DNA of 64,000 nt from an uncultured Anaerolineaceae bacterium (lineage in GTDB: Bacteria > Chloroflexota > Anaerolineae > Anaerolineales > UBA11579). Under the pieces are notes generated by a model. It had not been told where the DNA came from. It saw only the letters and a list, made by a program, of their open reading frames with translations, and ran no database searches. Position 1 is the first letter of the stretch, and every line of letters begins with the position of its first letter. The stretch lies in the NCBI GenBank assembly GCA_964371335.1, contig CAYJMC010000004.1, positions 19,179 through 83,178 on the forward strand. The letters are read 5' to 3'. The position numbers and the translations under genes are program-made. This document shows positions 1 to 18,392 of this stretch, piece after piece.

Positions 1-606
1 ACGCGCCGCGCGGTCATAAGGAACGCCCACCTGGCGGAAGCCCACCCAAGCAGACATACCCCGCAGAAAGCGGTGATGCTCGCGCATCTGGTTGAGCACG
101 TCCACCACGCGGCGATCCATCAAACGGAAGTCGCCGGTATCTAAAGGAATATCGATTTCGGTGATGCGGTTGATCAAGCGGTAGAAAAAAGAAGCCGTGA
201 TGCGCTTGAAAAAAGATTCGCCCTTGCGCTGGCGGCGTACCGCATATACCACTTCATAACCATCGCGCCAGTTGGCGATCAATTCGGGGATCACTTCAGG
301 TGGATCCTGCAAATCGCCGTCGATCAGGATCACTGCTTGCCCGCGGGCATGGTCCATCCCCGCGGTCACCGCAATCTGGTGCCCAAAATTGCGCGCGAAT
401 AGCAATGGCTGGATGTGCTTGTCATTGGCCGCATGCAGTTGGATGATTTCGCTTGTGCGATCTTTGGAGCCATCATCTACGATGACCAACTCCCAAGGTT
501 CGCCCAGTTTCTTCATCACCGCGGTGGTGCGGGCGATGAACTCAGGCATGGTTTCAGCCTCGTTATAGGCCGGAGCGACTACAGAAAAAACCGGTGGCTT
601 GCTCAA
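1..606 (-). CDS. Glycosyltransferase family 2 (GtrB/polyprenol-phosphate glycosyltransferase-like), runs off window start
   Basis: Read manually, not in ORF track: TTG start overlapping the upstream stop, then SKPPVFSVVAPAYNEAETMPE, VVDDGS, RNFGHQIAVTAG, IDGDLQDPPE, DTGDFRL. Confidence 0.9.
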   Translation of the reverse strand, partial: MSKPPVFSVVAPAYNEAETMPEFIARTTAVMKKLGEPWELVIVDDGSKDRTSEIIQLHAANDKHIQPLLFARNFGHQIAVTAGMDHARGQAVILIDGDLQDPPEVIPELIANWRDGYEVVYAVRRQRKGESFFKRITASFFYRLINRITEIDIPLDTGDFRLMDRRVVDVLNQMREHHRFLRGMSAWVGFRQVGVPYDRAAR

Positions 607-1853
607 TGCTGCACCTCGAGGGCGCGTTTCAGCGCCGCCAGGCTGGGCTCTATGACGGGCGCTTCGCCCGCTGCCTTACGCGCCGCAGCCACATCTTTAA
701 GGCCGCTGCCCGTGTTGAGTACCAGCACAGGATCTCGCGCCTTGATTAAACCCGATTCAAGGGCTTTGCGCAGCCCGGCAAAGGCTGCAGCGCCTGCCGG
801 CTCTGCAAAGATTCCATATTTGCCAAGCTGTGCGATAGCGGAAAGAATCGATTGGTCGCTAACTTTGACGTACGCCCCGCGCGTTTCTGTAACAGCTCTG
901 AGGGCACGTAAGCCATCACTGGGCAGATCCACAGAAATGCTGTCGGCGATCGTCTTGGCTTGCACCGCCTCAATCTTTTCTTTCCCAGCTTCGAAGGCAT
1001 TGGCAATGGCGGCCGAACCCTCGGCTTGCACACCAAAAATGCGTGGAACTTTTTCGATCCAGCCCAAGGCGAGTAGGTCTTTGAACCCCTTATGGATCCC
1101 AGAAATGATGTTGCCATCTCCCACGGAAACAAATACTGACAGTGGGATATCTAGTTTCTGTGTGGCTATAACTTGCTCCCAAATTTCCAGAGCAGCTGTT
1201 TTCTTTCCCTCTGCCGTGAACGGGTTATAGCCGGTGTTGCGGCAGTACCAACCGAATTCATCGGCTGCTTGCCGCGATAGTTCCACAGCGTCATCATAAG
1301 TGCCGTCAACCAGGAAGACGCTGGCGCCAAAGATGAGCAATTGAGCCACTTTTGCAGGCGGGGCCGTCTTCGGCGCAAAGATCACTGCACGGGCGCCTGC
1401 GGCTGCCGCCATGCCTGCCAGGGCGGCCCCCGCGTTGCCAGTCGAAGCGGTGACAATCACGCTGGCTTTGATCTCTTGCGCCCGAGCCACTAGGACCGCG
1501 CTGGCGCGGTCCTTGAAGGAAGCCGTCGGATTGCTGCTTTCGTCTTTGATCCAAAGTTGAGCCAGGTTGAGTGATTTGGTTAATTCGGGAAGTGAATAAA
1601 TCCGTGTCCAGCCAACTGATCGCAGCGGAGTGCCCTGGTGCCCCGGATCGCTGACCGGCAACAAGGGCAGATAGCGCCAGATCGAAAATTCCGTGGAGGT
1701 CTGGATGTCACGAGGTCCAGTTGCTTTCTTGATCGAATCGAAATCCAGAGCTACATCGAGCACGCCGGCGTCTTTAGGACAGACATAGGTCACTTCGTCA
1801 GGTTTATATTCCTGCCCGCAAACACTGCACTTGTAACCCAGGAATTTGTTCAT
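603..1853 (-). CDS. Threonine synthase-like PLP enzyme (fold type II)
   Basis: N-terminal CSVC..CPKD, NPTASFKDR (PLP lysine), ASTGNA, VSVGDGNII, AEPAGAA, LNTGSGLKD. The operon context argues against confidently calling it thrC. Confidence 0.85.
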   Translation of the reverse strand: MNKFLGYKCSVCGQEYKPDEVTYVCPKDAGVLDVALDFDSIKKATGPRDIQTSTEFSIWRYLPLLPVSDPGHQGTPLRSVGWTRIYSLPELTKSLNLAQLWIKDESSNPTASFKDRASAVLVARAQEIKASVIVTASTGNAGAALAGMAAAAGARAVIFAPKTAPPAKVAQLLIFGASVFLVDGTYDDAVELSRQAADEFGWYCRNTGYNPFTAEGKKTAALEIWEQVIATQKLDIPLSVFVSVGDGNIISGIHKGFKDLLALGWIEKVPRIFGVQAEGSAAIANAFEAGKEKIEAVQAKTIADSISVDLPSDGLRALRAVTETRGAYVKVSDQSILSAIAQLGKYGIFAEPAGAAAFAGLRKALESGLIKARDPVLVLNTGSGLKDVAAARKAAGEAPVIEPSLAALKRALEVQH

Positions 1854-1865
1854 CTAACTGTTTTC

Positions 1866-1922
1866 AACCTTGCGAAGGGTTGTATCCAGATCAGAAATAT
1901 GCAAGCCAACCTTCGCAAGGTT
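1866..1922. repeat. REP-doublet-like palindromic element, copy 1
   Basis: AACCTTGCGAAGGGTTG-spacer-CAACCTTCGCAAGGTT, intergenic. Confidence 0.85.
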
Positions 1923-1926
1923 TTTC

Positions 1927-2871
1927 TTATGGAACGATCCATGTCCCGGTCTTTCCAGCTAATGCGTTGGTGATGTTGGGCGGATCGGTGATCAGTGCCT
2001 GTTTGCCGCCACCCTTCAAGAAAAGGATCGCCGCTTGCACTTTCGGGAGCATGCTGCCTTTGGCAAAATGACCCTCGGCGATGTACTTCTCGGCTTCAGC
2101 AATCGTCATCCGATCCAGGTTCTTCTGGTCTGGTTTGTTGAAGTTGATAGCAATCTTTTCCACCGCGGTCGAGATCAAGAGCAAGTCAGCTTTGATTTCG
2201 CGCGCCAGCAAACTGGAAGCGAAGTCTTTATCGATCACGGCGGCAGTACCAACAAGATCGCCGGCCTCGTCTTCAACTACGGGGATGCCACCACCGCCCA
2301 CACCGATGACAGTGAAATCATGTTCGATGAGCTTCTTGATGGCGGCTGCTTCAACTATCTCTTGAGGGATCGGTGAGGCAACGACTTCGCGCCAACCACG
2401 CCCGGCATCCTCGATAAAATGTTTGCCTTCTTCAGCCATGCGTTTCTTAGCTGAAGCTTCATCCAGGAAGGATCCGATGGGTTTGGTGGGATTTTTGAAA
2501 GCGTCATCGTTCTTATCCACCAAACACTGGGTCACAACGGTGACCGCGTGCTTCTTCATGCCGCGGCGCTTGAACTCGTTGTGCAGCGACTGCTGGAACA
2601 TATAGCCAATGGCGCCTTGGGTGTCTGCGCCGCAGTAATCCAGTGGTACAGGATGCAGTTCATGCAGCGACAACTCCGAGCGGCGCAGGATGAAGCCAAC
2701 CTGTGGCCCATTACCGTGGGTAACAACCACATCCCAGCCTTCTGCGATCATGCCAGCGATGTAACCCATGGTTTCACTGGCAGCGGCAAACTGGTCGGGG
2801 ACTGACTGTTTCCCCTTTTCTTTGATAAGTGCGTTGCCCCCCACAGCAACGACAGCAACTTTCTTAGCCAT
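1927..2871 (-). CDS. arcC: Carbamate kinase
   Basis: VAVGGNAL, THGNGPQVG, DTQGAIGY, NPTKPIG, EDAGRGWR, AVIDKD, GSMLPKV. Confidence 0.95.
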   Translation of the reverse strand: MAKKVAVVAVGGNALIKEKGKQSVPDQFAAASETMGYIAGMIAEGWDVVVTHGNGPQVGFILRRSELSLHELHPVPLDYCGADTQGAIGYMFQQSLHNEFKRRGMKKHAVTVVTQCLVDKNDDAFKNPTKPIGSFLDEASAKKRMAEEGKHFIEDAGRGWREVVASPIPQEIVEAAAIKKLIEHDFTVIGVGGGGIPVVEDEAGDLVGTAAVIDKDFASSLLAREIKADLLLISTAVEKIAINFNKPDQKNLDRMTIAEAEKYIAEGHFAKGSMLPKVQAAILFLKGGGKQALITDPPNITNALAGKTGTWIVP

Positions 2872-2893
2872 TAGGCGATCTCTCCTTTTCCCT

Positions 2894-3877
2894 TTAAGCC
2901 ATGGTGAGCGCCATCACGGCTTTTTGCGCATGAAGGCGATTTTCAGCTTCGTCGATCACAGCCGATTGCGGGCCATCCAGCACGTCGCTGGTGATTTCTA
3001 CATCACGGTCCGCCGGAAGTGGGTGCATGTAGATGGCATCGTTGTGTGCAGCGGCCATCTTCTTGGCATCGGTGATCCAATCTTTGTTGGCGTCCTGCAA
3101 CTCTTTGCCTTTGTCGGCATCCGAGGTGGTCAGCAGCGGTCCCCAGGATTTCGCGTACACCACGTCGGCCTCCTTGAAGCCTTCCTTCATGTCGTGGACC
3201 ACATCGAAGCCAGTCTTGTATTGCTTGGAAAGCGACTTGGCTTGATCCATGATCTCAGGCATCAGCTCAAAGCCCTTGGGGTGTGAAAGTACAACATCCG
3301 CGCCAAAACGAGGTAGCTGCAAAATCAGCGATTGAGGCACCGAGATCGGCTTGAGGTAGCTGGACGCATATGCCCAGGAAACAACCACGCGCTTGCCGCG
3401 CAAGCTGCGAGCGCTGAATTTCTCCATCATGGTCATGAGGTCTGCAAGGCATTGGTGCGGGTGATAGATCTCGCATTGCATATTGAGCACCGGGACGCGG
3501 GAAGCTTCGGCCACCAGGTTCAGGTACCGGTTGCCGACACCCCACTCCACGTGACGGATGGCAATGCCGTCGAAATATCGGCCGAAAATATGGCCCATTT
3601 CCTTTTCGGTATCGCCATGCGAAATCTGTGTGGTGCGCGACTCAATGAAGGCGGCGTGGCCGCCCAGTTGAGCCATGCCCGCTTCGAACGAGCCGCGGGT
3701 GCGCGTACTCGAGAAGAAAAACAGCATGGCCAGCACCTTGTCGCGCAACAGGGCATGTGGCTCTCCCAGGGCACGTTTGCGTTTCAGGTCCCAGGCGACG
3801 TCTAAAACAGTTTCAACTTCTTCTTTACTAAAGTCCAGGTCGCTGATGAAATCGCGGCCGCGTAGATCGGTCTGCAT
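2894..3877 (-). CDS. Carbamoyltransferase, YgeW/knotted-type-like
   Basis: SSTRTR, HPHQ, SWAYASSYLKPISVPQS, YAKSWG, MHPLPAD, EAENRLH. Lacks the OTCase DxxxSMG motif. Confidence 0.85.
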   Translation of the reverse strand: MQTDLRGRDFISDLDFSKEEVETVLDVAWDLKRKRALGEPHALLRDKVLAMLFFFSSTRTRGSFEAGMAQLGGHAAFIESRTTQISHGDTEKEMGHIFGRYFDGIAIRHVEWGVGNRYLNLVAEASRVPVLNMQCEIYHPHQCLADLMTMMEKFSARSLRGKRVVVSWAYASSYLKPISVPQSLILQLPRFGADVVLSHPKGFELMPEIMDQAKSLSKQYKTGFDVVHDMKEGFKEADVVYAKSWGPLLTTSDADKGKELQDANKDWITDAKKMAAAHNDAIYMHPLPADRDVEITSDVLDGPQSAVIDEAENRLHAQKAVMALTMA

Positions 3878-3885
3878 ATTTCTCC

Positions 3886-4842
3886 TTATTCCGTGGCACC
3901 CATCACCAAAGCCAACAACGCCATGCGCATTACCACGCCGTTGAAGGCTTCCTGCCAGTAACGCGACCAGCGGGTGATATCCACATCGGGCGGGATCTCA
4001 TCCATGCGCGGCAGGGAGTGCAGCAGAATGGCATCGGACTTAGCCTTGGTCGAAAGGAGTTCCCGAGTGATCTTGTAATTGGCCGGTGTCAAATTCACGT
4101 CCCCGTTGCGTTCGTCACGGGACTTTGTGTAATCCGGTTGGACCACCGGCTCAACCAAAATGACATCCGCTTCAGCAATCGCTTGTTCGACATGTTCGGC
4201 TTCTTTGAAATTAAGGCTGTATTGCTTTAGTTCATCCTTGAATTCCTTGGTCAGGGACATGTCGGGCGGAGCCACAAAGGTGATCGGGCAGTCGAATTGG
4301 GTCAGCCCATAAGCCAAGGAGTGCATGGTGCGCATACGCATATCCCCCACGGCAAGCCATTTGAGCCCATCGATAGTGCCCTTTTCCTTCCAGACTGTGT
4401 AGAGATCGGTCAGGATTTGGGTCGGGTGCTCACCCCAGCCATCCCCGCCGTTGATGATGGGGATGCTGGCCCATTTGGCCGCCTCATGCGGGGCGCCTTG
4501 CTGGAAGTGGCGCATCACGATCACGTCGCCGTAGAATTCCAGCATCTTCACTGTGTCCTTGATGGACTCCTGGTAGAAGTCGCCGGCGCGGGTCATCTTG
4601 GCATCGGCAAAGCCGGTCACTTGCCCGCCCAAGCGGATCATGGCCGCTTCGTGGGCCAAGCGGGTGCGGGTGCTGGGCTGGTAGAACGCGGTGACCAGCG
4701 TTTTTTCCTTCAGCAAGTCCGTGTTCTGGCGGTCACGGGCGAAATGCTCCAGGTCTTCCGCGATCTCAAAGACGCGGAAAAATTCCTGTCGTTCAAAATC
4801 TTTCAATGAGAGAATGTCTCGTCCTGCAAAACTGCGCATCAC
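3886..4842 (-). CDS. Aspartate-carbamoyltransferase-like enzyme with altered acceptor site
   Basis: PSTRTR, IVMRH, GEHPTQ and HSLPR present. The KGE and TRxQxER aspartate-binding motifs are replaced. Confidence 0.85.
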   Translation of the reverse strand: MMRSFAGRDILSLKDFERQEFFRVFEIAEDLEHFARDRQNTDLLKEKTLVTAFYQPSTRTRLAHEAAMIRLGGQVTGFADAKMTRAGDFYQESIKDTVKMLEFYGDVIVMRHFQQGAPHEAAKWASIPIINGGDGWGEHPTQILTDLYTVWKEKGTIDGLKWLAVGDMRMRTMHSLAYGLTQFDCPITFVAPPDMSLTKEFKDELKQYSLNFKEAEHVEQAIAEADVILVEPVVQPDYTKSRDERNGDVNLTPANYKITRELLSTKAKSDAILLHSLPRMDEIPPDVDITRWSRYWQEAFNGVVMRMALLALVMGATE

Positions 4843-4868
4843 AACCTCCGTGGTTTGGGGATTAAGGA

Positions 4869-5603
4869 TTAGCTCGTTGGGCGCCGCGGTTCGACGCGGC
4901 GGATCACATGGAAGCGGAAATAGCCAGGAAGGAAATACGAGCGAGAGAGATCGATCACCGAGCCGTCCATTGAAAACAAGGTGGATTTGAAATGCAGCAC
5001 CACATCACCGCGCTGCATGTGCAGCGCCCGCGCCTCATTCGATTCCGCGGCCGCGGCATGGATCTCCGTATCCGCGCTGGTCACTCTTGAGTTGCCTTGC
5101 TTGAGCAGTAAATCCAAAACGGAACCGCTAAATTCGCGGCGGAACTCGGTTTCTTTAAATAGCTTATCTGGCAGCACATCGACCAGATAAGCAATCGGGC
5201 GACCCTCGGCTTCCATTACACGAGATACATGGAGAACGTGAGAATCTTTTAGCATCTCGCGTTCTTCGGGTTCGGCTGCGCGGCGCTCGATCTCATAGTC
5301 CCCCATGCGCACCGGCAACCCGACGCGTTGCGCCATGCTCTCGATGCTTTCGAGCAATTCGAGCCCAGTATCAATCACACTGGACGGATGCACTACGAAG
5401 GTGCCTACACCCTGCCGCCGTTGGATCAAACCCTGCGTCTCGAAAGTGCGCATCGCTTCGCGCAGTGTGGCGCGCGAAACTCCGAGCATCTCCGCCAACT
5501 TTGGCTCGGTGGGCAAGCGCTCCCCCGGGCTGGTCTTGGCGATCAATTCGCCAAGCTGGGCATGAAGTCGATTTGAAAGTATTCCTGTCTTAAGCATTCT
5601 CAA
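4869..5603 (-). CDS. GntR family regulator (HutC type, UTRA domain)
   Basis: LPTEPKLAEMLGVSRATLREA..RRQGVGTFV helix-turn-helix plus UTRA-like C-terminus. Confidence 0.92.
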   Translation of the reverse strand: MRMLKTGILSNRLHAQLGELIAKTSPGERLPTEPKLAEMLGVSRATLREAMRTFETQGLIQRRQGVGTFVVHPSSVIDTGLELLESIESMAQRVGLPVRMGDYEIERRAAEPEEREMLKDSHVLHVSRVMEAEGRPIAYLVDVLPDKLFKETEFRREFSGSVLDLLLKQGNSRVTSADTEIHAAAAESNEARALHMQRGDVVLHFKSTLFSMDGSVIDLSRSYFLPGYFRFHVIRRVEPRRPTS

Positions 5604-6985
5604 TTTGCCAGCAAACGTTTCGCGGCTCGATTGTGCTTTTCTACCAATCGCGGCAGTTCCACGGTTTGCATCTGGCCCTCCTTAACTATAAATTTTCCGC
5701 CGACCACGGTGTAATCCGCCTTGGTCGGCGCGCAAAAAACCAACGCAGCAAGTGGATCGTGCAATCCACCTGCGTAATCAATTTGATTGAGATTGATTGC
5801 AAAGAAATCGCCACACTTCCCAACTTCCAGGGAGCCGATATCGCTGCGTCCCAACACCGCGGCTCCACCGCGCGTGGCGAGCTCCAGCGCTTGACGAGCA
5901 GTCGTCAGTTCCGGGGCTTCGCCAGTCGAAAGTGAGGCGCCGCGCAACCCTGCATCCAATCGCGAAAGCAACATCGCCTGCCGGGCTTCAGCCAACATGT
6001 GCGAGGAGTCGTTGCTGGCTGAGCCATCCACACCCAACCCCACCTTCACGCCAGCAGTCAGCATCCTGGCGATCGGCGCGATCCCCGAGGCCAAGCGCAT
6101 GTTAGAAGACGGGCAGTGCGCTACGCCACAGCCTCTTTCCGCGTAGATGGCAATCTCTTCATCGTTCACGTGCACCGAGTGCGCGTACCAAACATCCTCG
6201 CCCACCCATCCCAGTGTTTCCATCCAGGCCACTGGGCGAGATCCGAAATTTCCTTGCGTGTACTGCTCCTCGTCTTGTGTCTCAGCCAAATGAGTGTGGA
6301 GGTGAACCTTATAGTGCCGCGCCAATTTGGCGGTCTCTTTCATCAAATCTTGTGAAACGCTGAATGGCGAACAAGGCGCCAATACGACCTGTGTCATCGA
6401 GCCAGCCGTGTCTTCATGATAGCTCTCGATCAAGCGCCTACTTTCAGCCAGGATAGCGTCTTCGTTCTCAACCACGCTATCAGGTGGCAGGCCGCCCTGA
6501 CTCTCTCCCACGCTCATTGACCCGCGCGACGCATGGAGGCGTACGCCAACCTCGCGAGCCGCCTCGATTTCATCATCTAATCGTGAGCCGTTGGGAAAAA
6601 TGTAAAGATGGTCAGAGGCTGTGGTGCAGCCTGAAAGGGCGAGTTCGGATAGCGCAGTCTGCGAAGAAATGAAGATGTCTTCAGGCGTCAGTCTGGCCCA
6701 AATGGGATACAGGGTCTTAAGCCAATTGAAGAGGTTGGCATTCTGCGCTGCGGGTACCGCCCGGGTCAGGGTTTGATAAAAGTGATGATGGGTATTGATC
6801 AGGCCCGGAAGGATGACATGGCCGCTCAGGTCCAGGACTTCGTCGGCTGTATCCGGTAGTTCGGACGAGGGGCCTACTTGCTCAATAAAGCCATTACGAA
6901 TAAATAGACCAGCATCTGCAATCTCTCGACGCTGGTCATCAAAGGCGGCCAAAAGGGCCGCGTGCCGGACAAGTAGGGTAGACAT
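5600..6985 (-). CDS. 8-oxoguanine deaminase-like amidohydrolase
   Basis: NTHHHFYQTLTR, PCSPFS, HLAET, HCPSSNMRL, DGSASND. Confidence 0.85.
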   Translation of the reverse strand: MSTLLVRHAALLAAFDDQRREIADAGLFIRNGFIEQVGPSSELPDTADEVLDLSGHVILPGLINTHHHFYQTLTRAVPAAQNANLFNWLKTLYPIWARLTPEDIFISSQTALSELALSGCTTASDHLYIFPNGSRLDDEIEAAREVGVRLHASRGSMSVGESQGGLPPDSVVENEDAILAESRRLIESYHEDTAGSMTQVVLAPCSPFSVSQDLMKETAKLARHYKVHLHTHLAETQDEEQYTQGNFGSRPVAWMETLGWVGEDVWYAHSVHVNDEEIAIYAERGCGVAHCPSSNMRLASGIAPIARMLTAGVKVGLGVDGSASNDSSHMLAEARQAMLLSRLDAGLRGASLSTGEAPELTTARQALELATRGGAAVLGRSDIGSLEVGKCGDFFAINLNQIDYAGGLHDPLAALVFCAPTKADYTVVGGKFIVKEGQMQTVELPRLVEKHNRAAKRLLAN

Positions 6986-6991
6986 AGTCTA

Positions 6992-7004
6992 GTTGTCTGA
7001 CAAC
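6992..7004. promoter_or_regulatory. Palindromic operator, probable GntR site
   Basis: GTTGTC-T-GACAAC lies between the -10 box and the ATG of an operon that encodes a GntR regulator. Confidence 0.7.
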
Positions 7005-7005
7005 C

Positions 7006-7034
7006 AGTGTAACTGAGAGGGGGCGGGCTGTCAA
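7006..7034 (-). promoter_or_regulatory. Sigma70-type promoter of the deaminase/carbamoyltransferase operon
   Basis: Minus strand TTGACA (7034-7029), 17 bp spacer, TACACT (7011-7006). Confidence 0.75.
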
Positions 7035-7084: not shown

Positions 7085-7960
7085 TTAGTCGGACAACTCG
7101 GCTGCGCGCAGCGTGTTTTCCAACAACATAGCGATGGTCATCGGACCCACGCCGCCGGGCACCGGAGTGATCGCCGACGCCACCTGGCTGGCTTCCTCGT
7201 AGGCAACATCACCCACCAATCGGTAGCCGCGCTTGGCACTAGCATCCTCTACGCGATTCACGCCCACGTCGATCACTACCGCACCAGGCTTGACCCAGTC
7301 GCCGCGCACCATCTGGGGCTTGCCTACAGCAGCCACCAACACATCGGCCTTGCGACATACACCAGGAAGATCTCGTGTGCGAGAGTGCGCAATAGTAACT
7401 GTGGCATCTGCCTTAGTCAGTAACAGAGCAATCGGCATTCCGACAATATTCGAGCGGCCTAATACAACTGCATTGGCGCCCGAAAGTTTGACCCCAGCCT
7501 CAGCCAGCATGCGCATAATGCCTGCCGGTGTGCAGGAAACAAAACGGGGCTCGCGGCCTTTTTGTGCAAGATAACCGATATTTTCTGGATGCAAACAGTC
7601 GACATCTTTATGAGGGGAAATTGCCGATTGGATCGCAGCGGCTTCGATTTGTTTCGGCAGCGGTACCTGAACCAAGATGCCATGCACCTCGGAGCGAGCA
7701 TTGAGCTCGGCAATTACTCTAAGGAGTTCTTCCTGGCTGGTTTCGGCAGGCATTTCATAGCCAAAGGAAACCATGCCCACTTCCTCGCTGGATTTGCGCT
7801 TGTTACGAACATAAGTCTCCGAGGCGGGGTCATTTCCGACCAAAACGGTTGCAAGCCCCGGGGGAGTTTTTCCGGCAGCCGTTCGAGCAGCCACCTTGGC
7901 CGTTGTTTCGGCACGTACTTTGGCAGCAAGAGCCTTCCCATCAAGAATCGCAGCGGTCAT
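7085..7960 (-). CDS. folD: Methylenetetrahydrofolate dehydrogenase/cyclohydrolase
   Basis: YVRNK, HGILVQVPLP, KDVD, GRSNIVGMP, ITPVPGGVGPMT. Confidence 0.97.
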   Translation of the reverse strand: MTAAILDGKALAAKVRAETTAKVAARTAAGKTPPGLATVLVGNDPASETYVRNKRKSSEEVGMVSFGYEMPAETSQEELLRVIAELNARSEVHGILVQVPLPKQIEAAAIQSAISPHKDVDCLHPENIGYLAQKGREPRFVSCTPAGIMRMLAEAGVKLSGANAVVLGRSNIVGMPIALLLTKADATVTIAHSRTRDLPGVCRKADVLVAAVGKPQMVRGDWVKPGAVVIDVGVNRVEDASAKRGYRLVGDVAYEEASQVASAITPVPGGVGPMTIAMLLENTLRAAELSD

Positions 7961-10217: not shown

Positions 10218-10424
10218 GGAGGATTACTAGAGCTTCTTCACAGTTTTTGGCACAAAAAATAAGTTTTCCCAGCATGCAGAGGTGCGCGCCGTGCACCTCT
10301 ACCTATAGGTATCATCAGAAGCTCAGTGGAAAGGAGGTGGACCATCTCAGCAGCCATTCGCCAATAGCAGCTTTCACTTCCTATGGAAGAAACTTCAACT
10401 TGCAAGTTTTTCGGAGGAGTAAGA

Positions 10425-11711
10425 ATGTCTAAAAAAGTCTTTTCTTTGCTGGCGCTTTTGACCGTTGCCAGCTTGTTATTGGCGGCCTGTGGCGCCCCCG
10501 CGCCGACTGAAGCCCCGGCCGAAGAGCCGGCGGCTGAAGAACCGGCAGCCGAAGAGCCCGCTGCGGAAGAACCAGCCTTCGAGTGTACGGACGCTATCGG
10601 CTGTGTGGAAGTCGCCGCTGGTGATCCAATTCGGATTGCTTCTGCGCTGGTCATCTCCGGCGCCAATGCCGACTTGGGCCTTGACTCTCAGTACGGCGTC
10701 GAGATCGCTATCCAGTTCAAGGGCGAAGTGCTCGGCCACCCGGTTGAGCTCCAGGCTGAAGACGACGGCTGCAACGCTGAAGGCGGCCAGGCTGCCGGAC
10801 AGAAGATCGTTTCTGATCCCACCATTGTGGGCGTCGTTGGTACTAGCTGCTCCGGTGCCGGTGTGCCTATGTCCCAAGTCATCTCTGACGCTGGATACTT
10901 CATGATTTCCCCATCCAACACGGCTCCCTCCCTAACCGACCCCGATCAGGCCTGGAGACCTGGCTACCTGCGCACAGCCCACAACGACAAAGTTCAGGGC
11001 GCTGCCATGGCTGAATACGCGTTTACCGAACTCGGTTTGACTACCGCCGCTGCAATTCACGACGGCGATCCTTATACCGAAGGTTTGGCCAATGCGTTCC
11101 GCGAGGCCTTTGAGGCTTTGGGCGGCTCTGTGATCGCCTTCACCGCGGTCAACGTGGGTGAAACGCAAATGGGCACTGTGCTTACCTCTGTTGCTGAAGC
11201 CGAAGGTGGCCCGCCGCAGTTCCTGTTTTTCCCGGTGTTCACCGCTGAATGTGCTTTCCTAGCCGTTCAGGCCCAGGATGTTGCCGGCTTGGAAAACACC
11301 GTCCGCGCTGCAGCCGACGGCTGCTTCTCAGATGCAGCTGCTGACGCCATCGGCGCCGCTGAAGAAGGAATGTTCTTCTCCGGTCCCGATCTGGCTTACA
11401 CCAGCGATGTGTACGAGCAGTTCAAGGCCGCTTACCTGGAGAACTACGGAACTGCTCCTCTCTCCGTATTCCATGCGCATGCTTTCGATGCCACCAACTT
11501 GATCTTCGGCTGCATTGAGACCACTGCGCAGCAGGATGCCGACGGCGCTCTGCTCATTGGCCGCCAGGCCATGCGCGACTGCCTGTATGCCACATCCGGT
11601 TACGAGGGCATCACCGGTTCGCTGACCTGCAATGAGTTCGGTGACTGCGCTGATCCCAAGATCGCGGTTTATGAGATCCAGGACGGCGCGTACGTTGCCA
11701 TCTGGCCATAA
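10425..11711 (+). CDS. Branched-chain-amino-acid-type ABC transporter substrate-binding lipoprotein (LivK family)
   Basis: Start moved to ATG 10425 after GGAGGA. Lipobox LLAAC, EDDGC, GTSCS, ISPSNT, LRTAHND. Confidence 0.92.
   Translation: MSKKVFSLLALLTVASLLLAACGAPAPTEAPAEEPAAEEPAAEEPAAEEPAFECTDAIGCVEVAAGDPIRIASALVISGANADLGLDSQYGVEIAIQFKGEVLGHPVELQAEDDGCNAEGGQAAGQKIVSDPTIVGVVGTSCSGAGVPMSQVISDAGYFMISPSNTAPSLTDPDQAWRPGYLRTAHNDKVQGAAMAEYAFTELGLTTAAAIHDGDPYTEGLANAFREAFEALGGSVIAFTAVNVGETQMGTVLTSVAEAEGGPPQFLFFPVFTAECAFLAVQAQDVAGLENTVRAAADGCFSDAAADAIGAAEEGMFFSGPDLAYTSDVYEQFKAAYLENYGTAPLSVFHAHAFDATNLIFGCIETTAQQDADGALLIGRQAMRDCLYATSGYEGITGSLTCNEFGDCADPKIAVYEIQDGAYVAIWP
10521..10577 (+). repeat. 15-bp coding tandem repeat (EEPAA linker)
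   Basis: About four units encoding EEPAA after the lipobox. Confidence 0.85.
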
Positions 11712-11743
11712 ATTCCTGATCGAAAACTAAGTATGTGATCTAC

Positions 11744-11776
11744 GGTTAGGCCCAGGGCTGCACCCTGGGCCTAACC
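11744..11776 (+). other. 14-bp perfect stem-loop after binding-protein gene (mRNA stabiliser/attenuator)
   Basis: GGTTAGGCCCAGGG-CTGCA-CCCTGGGCCTAACC, no U-tract. Confidence 0.7.
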
Positions 11777-11800
11777 TAGAACCGAGGGAGAACCCCGGAT

Positions 11801-12859
11801 ATGGATCGTCTTAGGTCTTTTTCAGTTATCAACGCATTTTTGTGGCTGATGCGCGCTGCAATTATTGCCGTCGTCGTATGGGGGACGATTCAAACCATTC
11901 TTCACAACCCCTACTCCACCCGCGCCTGGGAGGATTTCATCATTTTCGGCATCGCGCAGGGAAGTATGTATGCGCTGATCGCCATTGGTTACACACTGGT
12001 CTATGGCGTTCTGAAAATGATCAATTTCGCCCACAGTGAATTTTTTATGTCGGGTATCTTTACTGCCACCTCAGTGGTTGCTCTTCCGCTTTCAGAATCA
12101 GGGTTTATGGCGGAGAATCCTCTGATCACTATTTTTGCGGTTGGCATCGTCGCCATCATTGTGTCCGTGGTGATCGCACTGGTAACCGAACGAATCGCTT
12201 ATCGACCGTTGCGTAAAGCGCCTCGCTTGATGGCGCTGATTACAGCAATCGGGGCTTCATTTTTTTGGCAGTATTATTTTCGCGGGCTCTTCGGCTCACA
12301 AGTAAGGCCGTTTCCCATCACCGAAGCTCTGCAAGGCTCGGTTCCTTTCCTCGGTACCGAGATATTGAAAACACATATCCTGGTGGTGGTCGTCACCATA
12401 GTATCTCTGCTCGCCCTTAACTTTTTCATCACCAAGACCAAGGCCGGCATGGCTATCCGCGCTGTCGCAGAAAACAAAGACGTTGCTGCACTGATGGGCA
12501 TCAATGTCGATCGCACCATTAGCCTGACCTTCGCCACCTGTGCAGCCATGGCTGGCATTGCCGGCTTGCTATTTGCCATGGTCTACCAACAAGTTCACTT
12601 TTTCATGGGCTTTATTCCCGGCATCAAAGCTTTCACTGCGGCTGTTTTGGGGGGCATCGGCAACATTCCAGGAGCTGCGGTCGGCGGCCTCTTCCTGGGT
12701 TTGTTCGAATCCGTCGGGCCCAGCTTGTTCCTGCAGAGCCTGGGCATCCCCGCCGCAAATCAGTTGAAGGATGTGATTGCCTTTACCATGCTGGTCCTCG
12801 TGCTCATCTTCCGCCCGCAAGGTATTTTAGGCGAGCGCCTGGCCGAAAAGAAAGCCTGA
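11801..12859 (+). CDS. livH: Liv-type ABC permease
   Basis: YALIAIGYTLVYGVLKMINFAHSE, KAFTAAVLGGIG. Confidence 0.9.
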   Translation: MDRLRSFSVINAFLWLMRAAIIAVVVWGTIQTILHNPYSTRAWEDFIIFGIAQGSMYALIAIGYTLVYGVLKMINFAHSEFFMSGIFTATSVVALPLSESGFMAENPLITIFAVGIVAIIVSVVIALVTERIAYRPLRKAPRLMALITAIGASFFWQYYFRGLFGSQVRPFPITEALQGSVPFLGTEILKTHILVVVVTIVSLLALNFFITKTKAGMAIRAVAENKDVAALMGINVDRTISLTFATCAAMAGIAGLLFAMVYQQVHFFMGFIPGIKAFTAAVLGGIGNIPGAAVGGLFLGLFESVGPSLFLQSLGIPAANQLKDVIAFTMLVLVLIFRPQGILGERLAEKKA

Positions 12860-12865
12860 GGAGCC

Positions 12866-14533
12866 ATGAGCAACGGTTTCAATCTGGATTGGCGCCGCAC
12901 TCTGCAGCAGGCAGCTATCGCAGGGTTCATTTCACTTAGCGTTTCGGCCATTGGCATGGTGGAACTCTTTGGTGAGCGATTCCTGCTAGCCGGACTGATC
13001 ACCATGGGCCAAATAGCATTCCTGGCAGCCCCAGTCATGTTCTCCTACACCTCTGCAAGTTCAACTCTGGGTAAGGGAAGGGTATTGGCCAGTCTGGCAA
13101 AGGCGGCCGTGATTGGCGTGGTCAGCTCCCTATTCTTGATATTTTTAATTTGGGCGGCTCAGACCTTCGACGTGCGCTCAGTGCTTCCAAATGTGTCACC
13201 GAAATTGATCAGCTTGCTTACCTTTGAAGGTGGACCCGTCCAGGGCTCGCTTACTTTGTTGGGGATCACGGTCGCCACTTGCCTCCTTGCCGCAAGCTCT
13301 ACCTTCCTGCCAGAAAAGGTTCGCAAAACCCTTTTCTTTGGCCTGGGCTTGACCATGCTGGTCGGATTGTTTTCTCCAATCCTTGTGGAGCGCGTCCGCA
13401 ATTTCTTCGGACAGGATACGGTGAGATTGCTGTTTGCTTCAAACGCCTTGCAGCTTTGGCCCGCGATCATTTTGGCAATCGCCTCTACTGCCCTTTACTC
13501 CGCCTATCAACTGACAGCCTCTCGCCGGAAACCCGCAGGTCCACCCAAGAACGACCTCACAAGTAGAGTTGTGCGCCAAGCTCCCCTCTTCCTTCTTTTA
13601 TTGACCCTACCCTTTTTCCTGGGCACCTACCTGACTGAAGTCACAAACAACGTTGGTATATATCTGCTCATGGGGCTGGGATTGAACATTGTCGTCGGCC
13701 TGGCAGGTCTTTTGGACCTGGGTTACGTTGCTTTTTTTGCTATCGGCGCCTACACCATGGGCGTGTTAACTTCCACAGGTCACCTTGGTTTGGGTCTGTC
13801 ATTCTGGATAGCTCTTCCCATCTGTGTGGCCGTAGCTGCTTTCGCCGGCATTGTGTTGGGCATCCCGGTTCTCAAGATGCGTGGCGACTACTTGGCTATA
13901 GTCACTCTCGGCTTTGGCGAGATCATTCGCCTGCTGGCCTTGTCCGACATGTTGAAGCCATTCCTTGGGGGCGCCCAAGGTATTCTGAACATTCCGAAAC
14001 CTTCGATCGGCACCTTTGTTCTGGATGACCCCGAGCGCCTCTACTACGTAGTGTTGGCGGGAGCACTCCTGGCCGCGTTCATTTCTAACCGGCTGCGCGA
14101 ATCGCGCATCGGCCGTTCCTGGATCGCCGTGCGCGAAGATGAGGACGTGGCCGAGGCCATGGGCATCAATCTAGTACGAACCAAGTTGCTGGCATTCGCT
14201 ATTGGCGCAGGGTTTTCCGGTTTGGCGGGCGCCATCTTTGCTCCAAAACTGACCTCGATATTCCCGCATAGTTTCAACTTTCTCATCTCGATCAATGTAC
14301 TCAGCCTTATCATCGTCGGTGGGCTGGGTAGCATCCCGGGGACGGTGGTAGGCGCCATTATTTTGGTGGGATTGCCAGAGCTCCTGCGCGAGTTTGCCGA
14401 ATTCCGCTGGCTGATTTATGGCGCTTTATTGGTGCTAATGATGCTTAACCGCCCTGAAGGATTTATCCCCTCCGACATTATCCGTCGAGAGATGCACGCG
14501 GCGGAATCTGAAAATCCGGCGCCTACATCCTGA
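12866..14533 (+). CDS. livM: Liv-type ABC permease with N-terminal membrane extension
   Basis: GLNIVVGLAGLLDLGYVAFFAIGAY, RGDYLAIVTLGFGEI. Confidence 0.9.
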   Translation: MSNGFNLDWRRTLQQAAIAGFISLSVSAIGMVELFGERFLLAGLITMGQIAFLAAPVMFSYTSASSTLGKGRVLASLAKAAVIGVVSSLFLIFLIWAAQTFDVRSVLPNVSPKLISLLTFEGGPVQGSLTLLGITVATCLLAASSTFLPEKVRKTLFFGLGLTMLVGLFSPILVERVRNFFGQDTVRLLFASNALQLWPAIILAIASTALYSAYQLTASRRKPAGPPKNDLTSRVVRQAPLFLLLLTLPFFLGTYLTEVTNNVGIYLLMGLGLNIVVGLAGLLDLGYVAFFAIGAYTMGVLTSTGHLGLGLSFWIALPICVAVAAFAGIVLGIPVLKMRGDYLAIVTLGFGEIIRLLALSDMLKPFLGGAQGILNIPKPSIGTFVLDDPERLYYVVLAGALLAAFISNRLRESRIGRSWIAVREDEDVAEAMGINLVRTKLLAFAIGAGFSGLAGAIFAPKLTSIFPHSFNFLISINVLSLIIVGGLGSIPGTVVGAIILVGLPELLREFAEFRWLIYGALLVLMMLNRPEGFIPSDIIRREMHAAESENPAPTS

Positions 14534-16136: not shown

Positions 16137-17123
16137 ATGCTAATCCTCAACGCCAGCGAAGTACGTCAGGCCTTGACCATGGCCGAATGCATTGAAGCGA
16201 TGAAGCGAGCCTACGCCGCGCTCTCGGACGGCAAAGCCGAGGTGCCGTTGCGACTGCGGCTGCCCGTAAAGCCCAACGAGGGTTTGAGCATCTTTATGCC
16301 CGCCTTCGTAGATGACGAAGCCGGACAGGCTCTCGCCGTCAAAATTGTCTCCCTCTTCGACAGGAATCCGGCCCGCGGGCTGCCATTCATCCACGCAGCC
16401 GTCCTGGTGCTAAATGCGGAAAACGGCGCCGTGGAGGCCCTGCTCGAAGGCGGCAGCCTCACTGCCATCCGCACCGGCGCCGGTTGCGGCGCCGCCACTG
16501 ATGTGCTGGCTCGTCAAGATGCCCGCACGTTGGCTATTTTTGGCGCCGGCGTCCAGGCGCGCACCCAATTAGCGGCTGCTTGCGAGGTCCGCGACATCGA
16601 GACTGCTTGGGTCTTCGATCCGAACGCTAAACAGGTGCGGGATTTCATATCTGCCATGGCAGGCCGCGGCCGCATTCCGAATGTTTTACGGGCCGCGAAG
16701 GATCCCGCCGAAGCCGTGAACAATGCCGACATAATAAGCACGGCGACCACCAGCACCACGCCTGTATTCTCGGACACCGACTTGAAACCCGGCGTGCACA
16801 TTAACGGAGTGGGTTCGTACACTCTCGAGATGCAGGAAATTCCAGCCGAAACGGTTTGCCGCGCCCGCGTCACCGTCGACAGTCGCAGCGCCGCTCAGGT
16901 TGAATCAGGTGATATTGCCATTCCTCTGGAAAAGAGGTTGATTGAGGAATCCGACATTGCCGAAATCGGCGAGGTTATCTCCGGCAAACTACCTGGGCGC
17001 AGTGCGGCGGAGCAAATCACAATATTTAAATCCGTGGGTGTCGCAGTGCAAGACGCGGTGGCCGCACGCCTGGCAGTTGAGAATGCGCGTGGGATGGGAC
17101 TGGGAACGGAAATCAATTGGTGA
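16137..17123 (+). CDS. Ornithine cyclodeaminase/mu-crystallin family (ketimine reductase-like)
   Basis: FMPA, LTAIRTGA, IFGAGVQA, HINGVGS, FKSVGVAVQD. Confidence 0.9.
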   Translation: MLILNASEVRQALTMAECIEAMKRAYAALSDGKAEVPLRLRLPVKPNEGLSIFMPAFVDDEAGQALAVKIVSLFDRNPARGLPFIHAAVLVLNAENGAVEALLEGGSLTAIRTGAGCGAATDVLARQDARTLAIFGAGVQARTQLAAACEVRDIETAWVFDPNAKQVRDFISAMAGRGRIPNVLRAAKDPAEAVNNADIISTATTSTTPVFSDTDLKPGVHINGVGSYTLEMQEIPAETVCRARVTVDSRSAAQVESGDIAIPLEKRLIEESDIAEIGEVISGKLPGRSAAEQITIFKSVGVAVQDAVAARLAVENARGMGLGTEINW

Positions 17124-17138
17124 GCGGAAAGGAGGATG

Positions 17139-17230
17139 AAGTTAAAAGTTAAGGTTTAAAGTTTAAGGTACTTGGTTGCATGCCAAATATTTCGGGCTTA
17201 CCTAAACACTAAACTTTAAACATTCAACCA
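17139..17230. repeat. Inverted pair of heptamer tandem arrays
   Basis: AAGTTAA AAGTTAA GGTTTAA AGTTTAA ... TAAACAC TAAACTT TAAACAT TCAACCA. Confidence 0.7.
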
Positions 17231-17234
17231 GCTT

Positions 17235-18392
17235 ATGGACAATTTACCCAAATCAGCAGGGATTGTTGTTATCGGCGGCGGCGTCATGGGGGCTTCGACT
17301 GCATATCATCTTGCTGCTCGCGGCATCAAAGATATTGTCCTGCTTGAAAAAGAAGAATTTTTCGGGCAGGGCGCCACGGGGCGCTGCGCCGGAGGCGTTC
17401 GTTACCAGTTTGCCACCGAGGCCAACATCCGTCTCTCCCTCGCCAGCCTGCCCATGCTCGAACGGATTCCCGAAGAACTGGGTCAGGAGGTCGACTATCG
17501 CAAATGCGGATATCTTTTTTTGCTGAATAATGATAAAGACATCGCGACCTTTAAACGCAATGTGGCTTTGCAGAACCGGCTAGGCGTGCAGACCGCATGG
17601 CTCAGCGGAGACGAAATTCGGAAACGGTTGCCCCTAATGCGCTTGGAGGATATTCAGGCTGGGACATTCAATGCCAAAGATGGGCTTTGCGATCCCAACG
17701 GCGTTGTCATGGCCTATATCAATGCGGCAACTAAGTTGGGCGTGCAATGCATTGCCGGCGTCGAAGTTGTTGATCTCAAAATCCAAAACGGAAAAATTTC
17801 GGAAGTAAAAACAAACAAAGGCAATATGGCTGCTCCCGTTGTCGTTAACGCTGCTGGACCTTGGGCGGGTTTGCTTGGAACTATGGCCGGACTCGAAATA
17901 CCTATTACCCCCATACGCCGCCAGATGCTCACCACCACGCCACTGCCGCAGCTCCCCGCTGATTTTCCTTTCGTCATCGACTTTGCCCAATCGTTATATT
18001 TCCACCGCGAGGGCGATGGTGTGCTCACCGGCATGTCCAATCCCAACGAACGACCAGGCCTCGACCAAAATGTAGATCCCGACTTCGAGTTGGTCAACCT
18101 GGAAGCAGCCGCCGCGCGTTTGCCGCTCTTAGAAAAAGCTGGCCTGGCTTCCCATTGGGCCGGTCTCTATGAAGTGACCCCCGACGCACACCCCATCTTC
18201 GGCAGGACTCCCATCGAGGGGTTCTATCTCGTCGCTGGCTTCTCCGGGCATGGTTTCATGCACGGGCCGGTCGCAGGCAAGCTGATGTCCGAAATAATTC
18301 TGGACGGGTCTGCCAAAACCGTTGATGTCTCGATGCTCGACTTAGCGCGCTTCGATGAAGGCCGGGAAATCGTAGAATACAATGTTGTCTAA
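17235..18392 (+). CDS. FAD-dependent amino/imino-acid oxidoreductase (DAO/sarcosine oxidase beta family)
   Basis: IGGGVMG, GATGRCAGG, NAAGPW, TPDAHP, GFSGHGFM. Confidence 0.9.
   Translation: MDNLPKSAGIVVIGGGVMGASTAYHLAARGIKDIVLLEKEEFFGQGATGRCAGGVRYQFATEANIRLSLASLPMLERIPEELGQEVDYRKCGYLFLLNNDKDIATFKRNVALQNRLGVQTAWLSGDEIRKRLPLMRLEDIQAGTFNAKDGLCDPNGVVMAYINAATKLGVQCIAGVEVVDLKIQNGKISEVKTNKGNMAAPVVVNAAGPWAGLLGTMAGLEIPITPIRRQMLTTTPLPQLPADFPFVIDFAQSLYFHREGDGVLTGMSNPNERPGLDQNVDPDFELVNLEAAAARLPLLEKAGLASHWAGLYEVTPDAHPIFGRTPIEGFYLVAGFSGHGFMHGPVAGKLMSEIILDGSAKTVDVSMLDLARFDEGREIVEYNVV

Follow-up and report, generated by a model that had tools for sequence, protein, structure and literature searches.

A candidate ureide-cleaving operon of an Anaerolineae bacterium in which a relative of aspartate carbamoyltransferase may do the work of the hydrolase YgeY

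The first 7 kb of a 64,000-nucleotide stretch of DNA from an uncultured Anaerolineaceae bacterium (the window; contig C4:19179-83178) carry six minus-strand genes, among them two carbamoyltransferases, a carbamate kinase and an enzyme dependent on pyridoxal phosphate (PLP). The assembly spans 2.43 Mb in 127 contigs and is 86.9% complete, and close homologues are labelled Anaerolineales, Anaerolineae or Chloroflexota. A sequence-only reading of the window had proposed an operon for the catabolism of purine-derived ureides, and the six genes, their order and the overlaps or short gaps between them are confirmed by the coordinates of the open reading frames (ORFs). The operon probably serves the lower part of a reductive urate pathway, with one of the carbamoyltransferases, ctA, as a candidate replacement for the hydrolase YgeY. 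Its genes and features are the following, numbered within the window unless a locus is named.

5600-6985, minus strand: deaminase, 461 amino acids (aa), an 8-oxoguanine deaminase family amidohydrolase (PF01979)
4869-5603, minus strand: GntR/HutC regulator, 244 aa, with a TTG start that overlaps the deaminase stop; PF00392 and PF07702 (UTRA effector domain)
3886-4842, minus strand: ctA, a carbamoyltransferase like PyrB, the aspartate carbamoyltransferase (ATCase), 318 aa; PF02729 and PF00185
2894-3877, minus strand: ctB, a carbamoyltransferase of the superfamily of ornithine carbamoyltransferase (OTC), N-acetylornithine carbamoyltransferase (AOTC) and YgeW, 327 aa
1927-2871, minus strand: ck, carbamate kinase, 314 aa; arcC model
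603-1853, minus strand: plpT, a fold-type-II PLP enzyme like threonine synthase (ThrC), 416 aa, with a Cys-rich N-terminal segment
1..606, minus strand: GT2 glycosyltransferase (PgfS/ArnC-like), its N-terminal 202 aa within the window
L039:17372-18937 (contig C4, just outside the window), minus strand: CysK-like PALP enzyme
L039:16733-17314 (contig C4, outside the window), minus strand: 193-aa ORF
L039:15315-16730 (contig C4): HyuA-type hydantoinase (TIGR02033 522 bits, cut-off 393)
7006..7034, minus strand: sigma-70-like site TTGACA-17-TACACT upstream of the deaminase gene, 10/12 matches
6989-7007, no strand assigned: palindrome GTTGTC-N-GACAAC, a candidate operator of the GntR/HutC type that overlaps the -10 hexamer

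The genes are closely packed. The deaminase and GntR genes overlap by 4 nt (TTGA), gaps of 26, 8, 22 and 73 nt separate GntR from ctA, ctA from ctB, ctB from ck and ck from plpT, and the start of the GT2 gene again overlaps the plpT stop by 4 nt (TTGA). Position 603, taken in the earlier reading as the left edge of the unit, is not its end. The GT2, CysK-like, 193-aa and HyuA genes follow on the same strand in that order, the HyuA gene lying 2.5 kb outside the window edge.

The pathway to which these genes are compared, the reductive urate pathway of E. coli and Clostridium sporogenes, is described in two preprints (10.1101/2025.04.24.650524, 10.1101/2025.05.19.654654; also PMC12507026). According to their main texts, the cluster comprises xdhD-ygfM, ygfK, ssnA, hyuA, ygeW, ygeY, ygeX and yqeA. 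XdhD converts urate to 2,8-dioxopurine, which after reduction by YgfK or UacX and ring openings by SsnA and HyuA yields 2,3-diureidopropionate. YgeW takes one ureido group with phosphate and YgeY hydrolyses the other, after which YgeX converts 2,3-diaminopropionate to pyruvate and the carbamate kinase YqeA forms adenosine triphosphate (ATP). The same main texts differ on the ureido groups: YgeW is assigned the 3-ureido group and YgeY the 2-ureido group in one (10.1101/2025.04.24.650524), and YgeW is assigned the 2-ureido group, giving albizziin, in the other (10.1101/2025.05.19.654654). The latter also describes Chloroflexota clusters in which an F420 luciferase-type gene takes the place of YgfK, and a hydrolase of C. 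difficile, UacY, that replaces YgeW and YqeA. The terms "aspartate carbamoyltransferase", "PyrB" and "threonine synthase" have no occurrence in the main text of either preprint, and a literature search for a carbamoyltransferase together with diureidopropionate matched only the reductive urate work, as two records of one paper. The pathway has been known since 2025; the present operon has three components that are not orthologous to those described, and one of them, ctA, is narrowly distributed.

Much of the reductive urate gene set is present in the genome itself: XDH-type (xanthine dehydrogenase-type) enzymes, SsnA, a HyuA-type hydantoinase and carbamate kinase, with an F420-dependent oxidoreductase of the luciferase-like monooxygenase (LLM) type standing for YgfK. 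Contig C25 encodes SsnA (500 bits, cut-off 444) with npdG, cofC, cofE, a PPOX-type F420 enzyme and the LLM F420 oxidoreductase, XDH-type enzymes are found on contigs C45 and C85, those on C45 together with yqeB, yqeC/mocA and xdhC, and contig C33 carries an adenine deaminase with a Bmp transporter. The operon deaminase passes the 8-oxoguanine deaminase model NF006055 (679.2 bits, cut-off 532) and is predicted to supply urate or xanthine from guanine-type bases, oxidised or ordinary. The carbamate kinase passes TIGR00746 (382.8 bits, cut-off 358.25) and NF009007 (413 bits, cut-off 266) and is the only copy in the assembly. YgeW, YgeY and YgeX are represented by non-orthologous candidates only, none of the three scoring above family cut-offs in this 86.9%-complete assembly. 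The earlier statement that YgeY and YgeX are missing is true of the window and extends to the entire assembly, where the best YgeY-family match reaches 46.7 bits and the best YgeX-family match, plpT, 64 bits.

The surroundings of the operon were compared in 41 loci, namely the locus itself and 40 with ctB orthologs of the same order and class, whose genes were identified with tblastn and family models. Genes recur in the order (folD)-deaminase-(adenine deaminase)-gntR-(ygeY)-(ctA)-ctB-ck, bracketed genes being present in some loci, and ck is followed either by plpT-GT2-CysK-like-193-aa ORF-hyuA or by a PnrA/Bmp-type ABC (ATP-binding cassette) transporter. The deaminase gene is the first of the operon in most relatives, the position of gntR ahead of the ygeY/ctA slot is conserved, and ctB adjoins ck, ygeY or ctA in every case. 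One locus, L024, unites XDH subunits, an SsnA-like protein, ck, ctB, ctA, ygeY, an F420-type LLM, plpT, a CysK-like gene and a hydantoinase, and its LLM is 75% identical to the oxidoreductase on contig C25. Since the loci were partly chosen by ctA status, the following proportions are not frequencies.

ck beside ctB: 36/41 loci
ygeY: 20/41 loci
plpT: 21/41 loci
CysK-like gene: 16/41 loci
hyuA: 9/41 loci
ssnA: 3/41 loci
gene like E. coli YgeX: 0/41 loci

The assignment to purine and ureide catabolism made from the letters of the window is supported by these neighbourhoods. In relatives the core adjoins adenine deaminase, XDH, SsnA, F420 LLM, HyuA, YgeY and PnrA-type transporter genes, and the genome holds SsnA, F420 genes and XDH on other contigs and HyuA just outside the window. 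The cluster is also conserved, ctB being found in 218/401 genomes of the class, and is accessory within the genus, where 12/23 genomes have both ctB and plpT and the other 11 have neither. These sets contain genomes flagged as unpublished, G384 among the 401 and G015 among the 12. Two genes of the neighbourhood recur without an evident part in the pathway. The GT2 gene lies between plpT and the CysK-like gene and is kept there in 10 further loci; folD (window 7085-7960, minus strand) is the gene immediately ahead of the deaminase gene, as it is in 14 related loci, which include L013-16, L019, L022, L023, L027, L029, L031, L066, L073 and L076.

ctA belongs to the fold family of ATCase. It passes TIGR00670 (256.3 bits, cut-off 236.95) and fails NF002032 (225.5 bits, cut-off 263), and its best match of solved structure is 1ml4 (238 bits). 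An alignment of 26 ctA orthologs with PyrB of E. coli and the PyrB of the genome itself separates two groups of residues. The carbamoyl-phosphate site (S52, T53, R54, T55, R105, H134, Q137) is kept in 26/26 orthologs, as are R167, L267 and R296. Changed in 26/26 are S80R, K84Y, R229P, Q231T (V in a second alignment) and P266S. We take K84, R229 and Q231 to hold the aspartate carboxylates in E. coli ATCase, R229 and Q231 the one of the side chain, and R167 presumably holds the alpha-carboxylate. With R167 kept and K84, R229 and Q231 lost, the pattern would fit an alpha-amino acid without a beta-carboxylate. A candidate substrate, judged from these residues, would be 2,3-diaminopropionate or a ureido derivative of it.

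The earlier suspicion that ctA is not an ordinary ATCase is borne out by its altered aspartate site, by a second, canonical PyrB and by its place in the tree. The canonical PyrB, on contig C1, is 40% identical to ctA, has all aspartate-site residues and lies directly downstream of a dihydroorotase-like match. In a FastTree analysis of 93 full-length representatives with references, which is one method with limited sampling, the ctA clade has a support of 1.0 and stands outside the canonical ATCase clade, its nearest neighbours being other non-canonical proteins with R80 and Y84. The canonical signature is present in 40/93 of the full-length representatives, and the clade that contains the canonical enzymes shows it (SKRRQPL) in 42/67 leaves. 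The ctA signature itself was found in two full-length clusters only (73% and 70% identity) among 1.84 billion representatives; the next matches, at ≤49% identity, are other non-canonical ATCase-like proteins with R80 and Y/F84 and without R229 and Q231. Within the class, ctA orthologs are 67-92% identical and ctB orthologs 64-82% among the matches listed. No match to pyrI was found in 7 extra loci with E. coli PyrI as query, and neither pyrI nor pyrC is among the annotated genes of the operon.

Proteins of this other kind, ATCase-like with R80 and Y/F84 but neither R229 nor Q231, form a broad set (P0128-P0170 and others; L072); they are 37-49% identical to ctA and probably annotated as aspartate carbamoyltransferase. 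Around L072, the nearest other ATCase-like family, permeases were the only matches. A contig scan for non-canonical ATCase-like genes returned mostly canonical PyrB, while L073-L076 are the ctA cluster itself. One locus lies outside the phylum by its label: L078, from a metagenome-assembled genome (MAG) labelled Actinomycetota, has the arrangement ctB / ctA-ck-plpT-CysK-like.

The most instructive comparison of ctA and ygeY comes from within the genus. In G013, a genome of the same genus, the order is gntR-ygeY-ctB-ck-plpT-GT2-CysK-like-ORF-hyuA, its YgeY, of 471 bits, being the immediate neighbour of ctB. ctA takes the place of ygeY in the window and in four other genomes of the genus, and the other genes are unchanged. 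Those four genomes are 89-95% complete and gave no match to the YgeY family at E≤1e-30. The M20 genes in the operon slot of relatives are bona fide YgeY (TIGR03526 444-470 bits, cut-off 321.5). Such a swap in place is a classical sign of equivalent function, though not proof of it, and it makes an equivalence of ctA and YgeY plausible.

The distribution of the two genes was surveyed in 401 genomes of the class.

ctB ortholog (E≤1e-90): 218/401 genomes
ctA ortholog (E≤1e-85): 82/401 genomes
YgeY family (E≤1e-85): 307/401 genomes, 304 of them over the cut-off
ctA and YgeY both present: 54 of 218 genomes with ctB
ctA present, YgeY absent: 25 of 218 genomes with ctB
ctA absent, YgeY present: 130 of 218 genomes with ctB
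ctA and YgeY both absent: 9 of 218 genomes with ctB

At least one of the two is present in 209/218 genomes with ctB (96%). ctA occurs in 25/34 of those without YgeY, among them the near-complete G169 (99%, 3 contigs), and in 54/184 of those with it, a negative association with an odds ratio of 0.15 and a Fisher p of 3e-6, whose significance is overstated because the test ignores kinship. ctB accompanies ctA in 79/82 genomes, and in the other 3 ctA lies within about 2 kb of a contig start; 139/218 genomes with ctB are without ctA. Part of the YgeY family serves other contexts, as 123 genomes without ctB carry it. The weaker YgeY matches (380-394 bits) were on a different contig from ctA and ctB in 5/5 ctA genomes checked. 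Mutual exclusivity of the two genes, which had been put forward as a test, was not found; what stands is the case for ctA as a stand-in for YgeY, on the grounds of the shared slot, the swap within the genus and the negative association.

The second carbamoyltransferase, ctB, falls between established families. Its nearest solved structures are OTC, AOTC and YgeW, and it scores below the cut-offs of NF001986 (OTC; 247 against 306), TIGR00658 (230 against 281) and NF003384 (AOTC; 245 against 288). With the YgeW models it reaches 188 bits (TIGR03316, cut-off 500) and 194 bits (NF005538, cut-off 453), the match covering residues 4-292. In E. coli PyrB column numbering, it agrees with E. coli YgeW at Q80, H84, K165, P166, S167, V168, S229 and W230, in 41/41 orthologs at seven of these positions and in 40/41 at position 165, and E. 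coli ArgI differs from it at 165-168 and 229. Relatives with ctB carry a separate argF-like gene that is about 32% identical to it; the search for a second OTC-type gene in the assembly of the window returned only a 29-aa fragment at a contig edge. By context, ctB is a candidate functional counterpart of YgeW that does not belong to the YgeW family. It is about 27% identical to ctA.

A comparable departure from the expected family is seen in plpT. It passes the threonine synthase model TIGR00260 (183 bits, cut-off 167), fails NF006050 (286 bits, cut-off 303) and fails the YgeX model NF006058 (76 bits, cut-off 276), the diaminopropionate ammonia-lyase model that no protein of the assembly passes. 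The PLP-lysine motif SFKDR is kept and a Cys-rich extension precedes it at the N-terminus. The canonical ThrC motif NS.NPYR.EGQKT reads RNTG.NP[FY][TM].EGKKT in plpT, with the Arg lost in 21/21 orthologs; this Arg, Arg160 in Thermus numbering, is presumably the ligand of the substrate phosphate. plpT is not the sole gene of its kind: the housekeeping ThrC is a contig-end fragment on C37 (TIGR00260 263 bits, cut-off 167) with the motif Arg present, and a further ThrC paralog lies on C1. The orthologs of plpT occur in exactly those genomes of the genus that hold ctB, and plpT is a candidate lyase for 2,3-diaminopropionate or ureido-alanine. The CysK-like PALP protein (485-521 aa) has an N-terminal extension and a weak family match, and is conserved between GT2 and hyuA, as is the 193-aa ORF, which matches only Chloroflexota hypotheticals. 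Matches to the 193-aa and 503-aa downstream ORFs were confined to Chloroflexota hypotheticals and a membrane-protein lead. The final beta-elimination could be carried out by plpT, by the CysK-like enzyme or by both. That the ThrC-like enzyme replaces YgeX, as first proposed, is plausible, and the CysK-like enzyme is an equal candidate for the role.

In the genus, eight genomes (G001, G002, G005, G011, G014, G016, G017, G018) gave no carbamoyltransferase match with ctB as query (E≤0.001), pyrB- and argF-like genes included. They are 92-96% complete, some in 1-3 contigs, and the synthesis of pyrimidines and arginine may be missing from part of the genus. In G010 (L013) an internal TAA interrupts the plpT ortholog and the deaminase gene was called as two ORFs, so that the cluster may be decaying there.

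Expression of the operon was thought to start from a promoter ahead of the deaminase gene. The site TTGACA-17-TACACT is present, and the region holds about as many sites of this kind as shuffled sequence does (4 in 8.2 kb, 4.4 expected), so the match taken alone is at chance level. It is backed by the palindrome at its -10 hexamer, a perfect inverted repeat that is unique in the 2.43-Mb genome (≤1 mismatch) and recurs upstream of deaminase orthologs. In 14/18 loci a similar palindrome (≤3 mismatches) is present in the 200 nt ahead of the deaminase gene, against a chance expectation that we estimate at about 0.03 per locus. The palindrome fits an operator of the HutC-type regulator, for which it is a candidate. 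As it has no second copy in the genome at ≤1 mismatch, it gives no link to the separate purine loci.

Taken together, the operon is, by a slight balance of probability, the ureide-cleaving, ATP-yielding lower module of the reductive urate pathway in the form that Anaerolineae (Chloroflexota) use, with ctA doing the job of YgeY. XDH-type enzymes, the F420 LLM reductase, SsnA and the HyuA-type hydantoinase would convert purines to 2,3-diureidopropionate, and the 8-oxoguanine-deaminase-family enzyme would feed guanine-type bases into the pathway. ctB, as the counterpart of YgeW, would phosphorolyse one ureido group, and ctA the other in place of hydrolysis by YgeY. ctA would be a descendant of ATCase that kept the carbamoyl-phosphate site and the Arg for the alpha-carboxylate and lost the ligands of the aspartate side-chain carboxylate. 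The single carbamate kinase may then turn each carbamoyl phosphate, with adenosine diphosphate, into ATP, giving up to 2 per urate against 1. The ThrC-like enzyme, the CysK-like enzyme or both would convert 2,3-diaminopropionate to pyruvate and ammonia, replacing YgeX, and the palindrome that overlaps the -10 hexamer would be the site of repression by the GntR/HutC regulator. By analogy, the 2-ureido group would be expected to fall to ctA and the 3-ureido group to ctB, as ATCase acts on an alpha-nitrogen and enzymes of the OTC and putrescine carbamoyltransferase type on a distal one. This division would agree with the main text of 10.1101/2025.04.24.650524, itself a disputed assignment. The double phosphorolysis of the sequence-only reading is plausible and has partial support; its substrates and extra ATP stay at the level of proposal. 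It withstands the checks named with it, save for strict mutual exclusivity of ctA and ygeY: canonical PyrB and ThrC copies exist elsewhere in the genome, ctA stands outside the canonical ATCase clade and the cluster is conserved.

Several points weigh against this interpretation. Since the preprints' main texts conflict on the target of YgeW, homology does not tell how ctA and ctB would share the two ureido groups. Ureido phosphorolysis is thermodynamically uphill, as remarked for YgeW in the main text of 10.1101/2025.05.19.654654. What was observed are the genes and their families, the altered residues, the conservation and distribution of the genes and the exchange in the operon slot; from these we infer every substrate and activity, the regiochemistry, how much ATP is formed and the operator. 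ctB fails the YgeW cut-offs, scores higher with OTC and AOTC models and, at 327 aa, is about 65 aa shorter than YgeW (about 391-396 aa); two PLP enzymes are available for one proposed step. The association of ctA with absence of YgeY was calculated without regard to relatedness, 20 loci (L050-L069) had been chosen for having or lacking ctA, and an assembly of this completeness may be short of genes. The genome also contains two hydrolases that might act on a ureido group. One, an M20 "dipeptidase" (L035:8940-10322, plus strand, contig C25; PRK08201 495 bits, cut-off 441), is divergent from the SsnA/F420 string and is a possible alternative ureido hydrolase. The other, an Amidohydro_3 protein (C4:8922-10520), is encoded about 5 kb past the hyuA-side end of the cluster and could hydrolyse a ureido group locally; its matches of solved structure are two uncharacterised hydrolases only, and no D-aminoacylase is among them. 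As a conserved, UacY-type member of the cluster the Amidohydro_3 gene was rejected, being absent from the other 40 loci.

The most direct difficulty is that ygeY and ctA stand together with ctB in 8/41 inspected loci, contiguous in most, and that a YgeY-family gene is present in 54/79 genomes with both ctA and ctB. Such frequent co-occurrence means that ctA may have a task of its own and not duplicate YgeY. The module would then still serve purine ureides, with ctA acting on another N-carbamoyl compound, on a stereoisomer or in a side branch, and genomes without YgeY would rely on an unrecognised hydrolase, for which the two genes just described could be considered. The stronger conservation of ctA than of ctB, within the matches listed for the latter, would likewise suit a distinct, constrained role. 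This explanation is unlikely, if far from negligible, given the exchange of ctA for ygeY in the same slot within one genus and an otherwise unchanged operon, the 25/34 genomes with ctB and without YgeY that hold ctA, the restriction of the Amidohydro_3 gene to one locus and the 46 bits that the PRK08201 protein reaches with the YgeY model. It is improbable that ctA is a mixed-oligomer partner of ctB or a regulatory or scaffolding paralog, as might be thought from genes 8 nt apart in the window and from the presence of ctB in nearly all ctA genomes. The carbamoyl-phosphate and catalytic residues are invariant in 26/26 orthologs, which is unexpected for a non-catalytic subunit, the two proteins share about 27% identity, and 139/218 ctB genomes manage without ctA.

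More remote explanations do away with the purine pathway or with catabolism altogether. The deaminase family includes enzymes that hydrolyse amidine- and guanidine-type C-N bonds, and the operon itself is without an XDH or SsnA gene, so that a route like that of arginine deiminase for some non-purine guanidino or ureido compound, its purine link incidental, could be imagined. It is very improbable in light of the adenine deaminase, XDH, SsnA, F420 LLM, HyuA and YgeY genes that directly adjoin the core in relatives, the HyuA gene in the same string here and the score of the deaminase above the 8-oxoguanine deaminase cut-off. Least credible of all is an accidental cluster of ordinary biosynthetic pyrB, argF and thrC genes. 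ctA passes TIGR00670 and plpT passes TIGR00260, and the other OTC-type gene of the assembly is the contig-edge fragment only; yet a canonical PyrB is present on C1 and a canonical ThrC fragment on C37, the aspartate-site residues and the ThrC-motif Arg, presumed to bind phosphate, are lost, and relatives carry the separate argF-like gene besides ctB. The cluster is moreover missing from 11/23 genomes of the genus, and a carbamate kinase and a catabolic regulator are encoded with it.

The interpretation of the operon as a ureide-cleaving module can also be set against known systems. With the reductive urate cluster it shares SsnA, a HyuA-type enzyme, an XDH-type enzyme with yqeB/yqeC, a carbamoyltransferase beside carbamate kinase, ATP by way of carbamoyl phosphate and, in Anaerolineae relatives, bona fide YgeY. 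It differs in having the short, OTC/AOTC-like ctB for YgeW, the ATCase-derived ctA in the YgeY slot, ThrC-like and CysK-like PLP enzymes at the place of YgeX, a gene of the 8-oxoguanine deaminase family, a GntR/HutC regulator in place of YgeV and genes spread over several loci. Compared with PyrB of E. coli and Pyrococcus abyssi (1ml4), ctA keeps the fold family, STRTR, HPxQ, R105 and R167, whereas K84, R229, Q231, S80 and P266 are replaced and the gene stands in a catabolic operon with carbamate kinase. In the arginine and agmatine deiminase pathways, too, a catabolic OTC or putrescine carbamoyltransferase phosphorolyses a ureido group and carbamate kinase forms ATP; their substrates are citrulline or carbamoylputrescine, whereas here the substrate is proposed to derive from purines, and two different carbamoyltransferases share one operon. 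Threonine synthase of class I (Aquifex 2zsj, Thermus 1uim) gives the best solved matches of plpT (150-168 bits) and shares SFKDR, but plpT is without the motif Arg, has the Cys-rich N-terminal extension and occurs only alongside the purine cluster. UacY of C. difficile, as described in the main text of 10.1101/2025.05.19.654654, is a precedent for an exchange between hydrolysis and phosphorolysis at the same ureido step in different lineages. That exchange went toward hydrolysis with loss of ATP, whereas the one proposed here would go toward phosphorolysis with gain of ATP.

Elsewhere in the window, a 659-aa amidohydrolase of the TRZ/ATZ type (19650-21629, plus strand) is 30% identical to the operon deaminase and is extended at its C-terminus by about 200 aa. 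Near the operon, the segments 10383-14533 and 16137-18392 (both plus strand) encode the binding protein and two permeases of a Liv-type ABC transporter, a member of the ornithine cyclodeaminase family and an oxidase dependent on flavin adenine dinucleotide and resembling sarcosine oxidase beta, and no link between these genes and the operon was found. Among 28 window ORFs scanned between 12.9 and 49 kb, none is an XDH, SsnA or HyuA; all are housekeeping or unrelated.

The reductive urate pathway bears on purine turnover in the gut and on the energy gain of anaerobes. The changes K84Y, R229P and Q231T/V, together with the tight clade and its non-canonical sister groups, flag mis-annotated "aspartate carbamoyltransferases", and these Anaerolineae genes are probably also mislabelled where they are called "threonine synthase" or "ornithine or N-acetylornithine carbamoyltransferase". 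A broader proposal, for which the chances fall a little short of even, is that a clade of Anaerolineae (82/401 genomes) and at least one Actinomycetota MAG recruited a descendant of ATCase as an "alpha-ureido phosphorylase", so that both ureido groups would be phosphorolysed with formation of two ATP, and lyases derived from ThrC or CysK would complete the pathway. If ctA does act by phosphorolysis, the ATP obtained from the ureide part would double. Hydrolytic and phosphorolytic solutions would then have been swapped in place between close relatives, the hydrolase YgeY being displaced by an energy-conserving transferase, and the ATCase fold would have gained a new catabolic activity.

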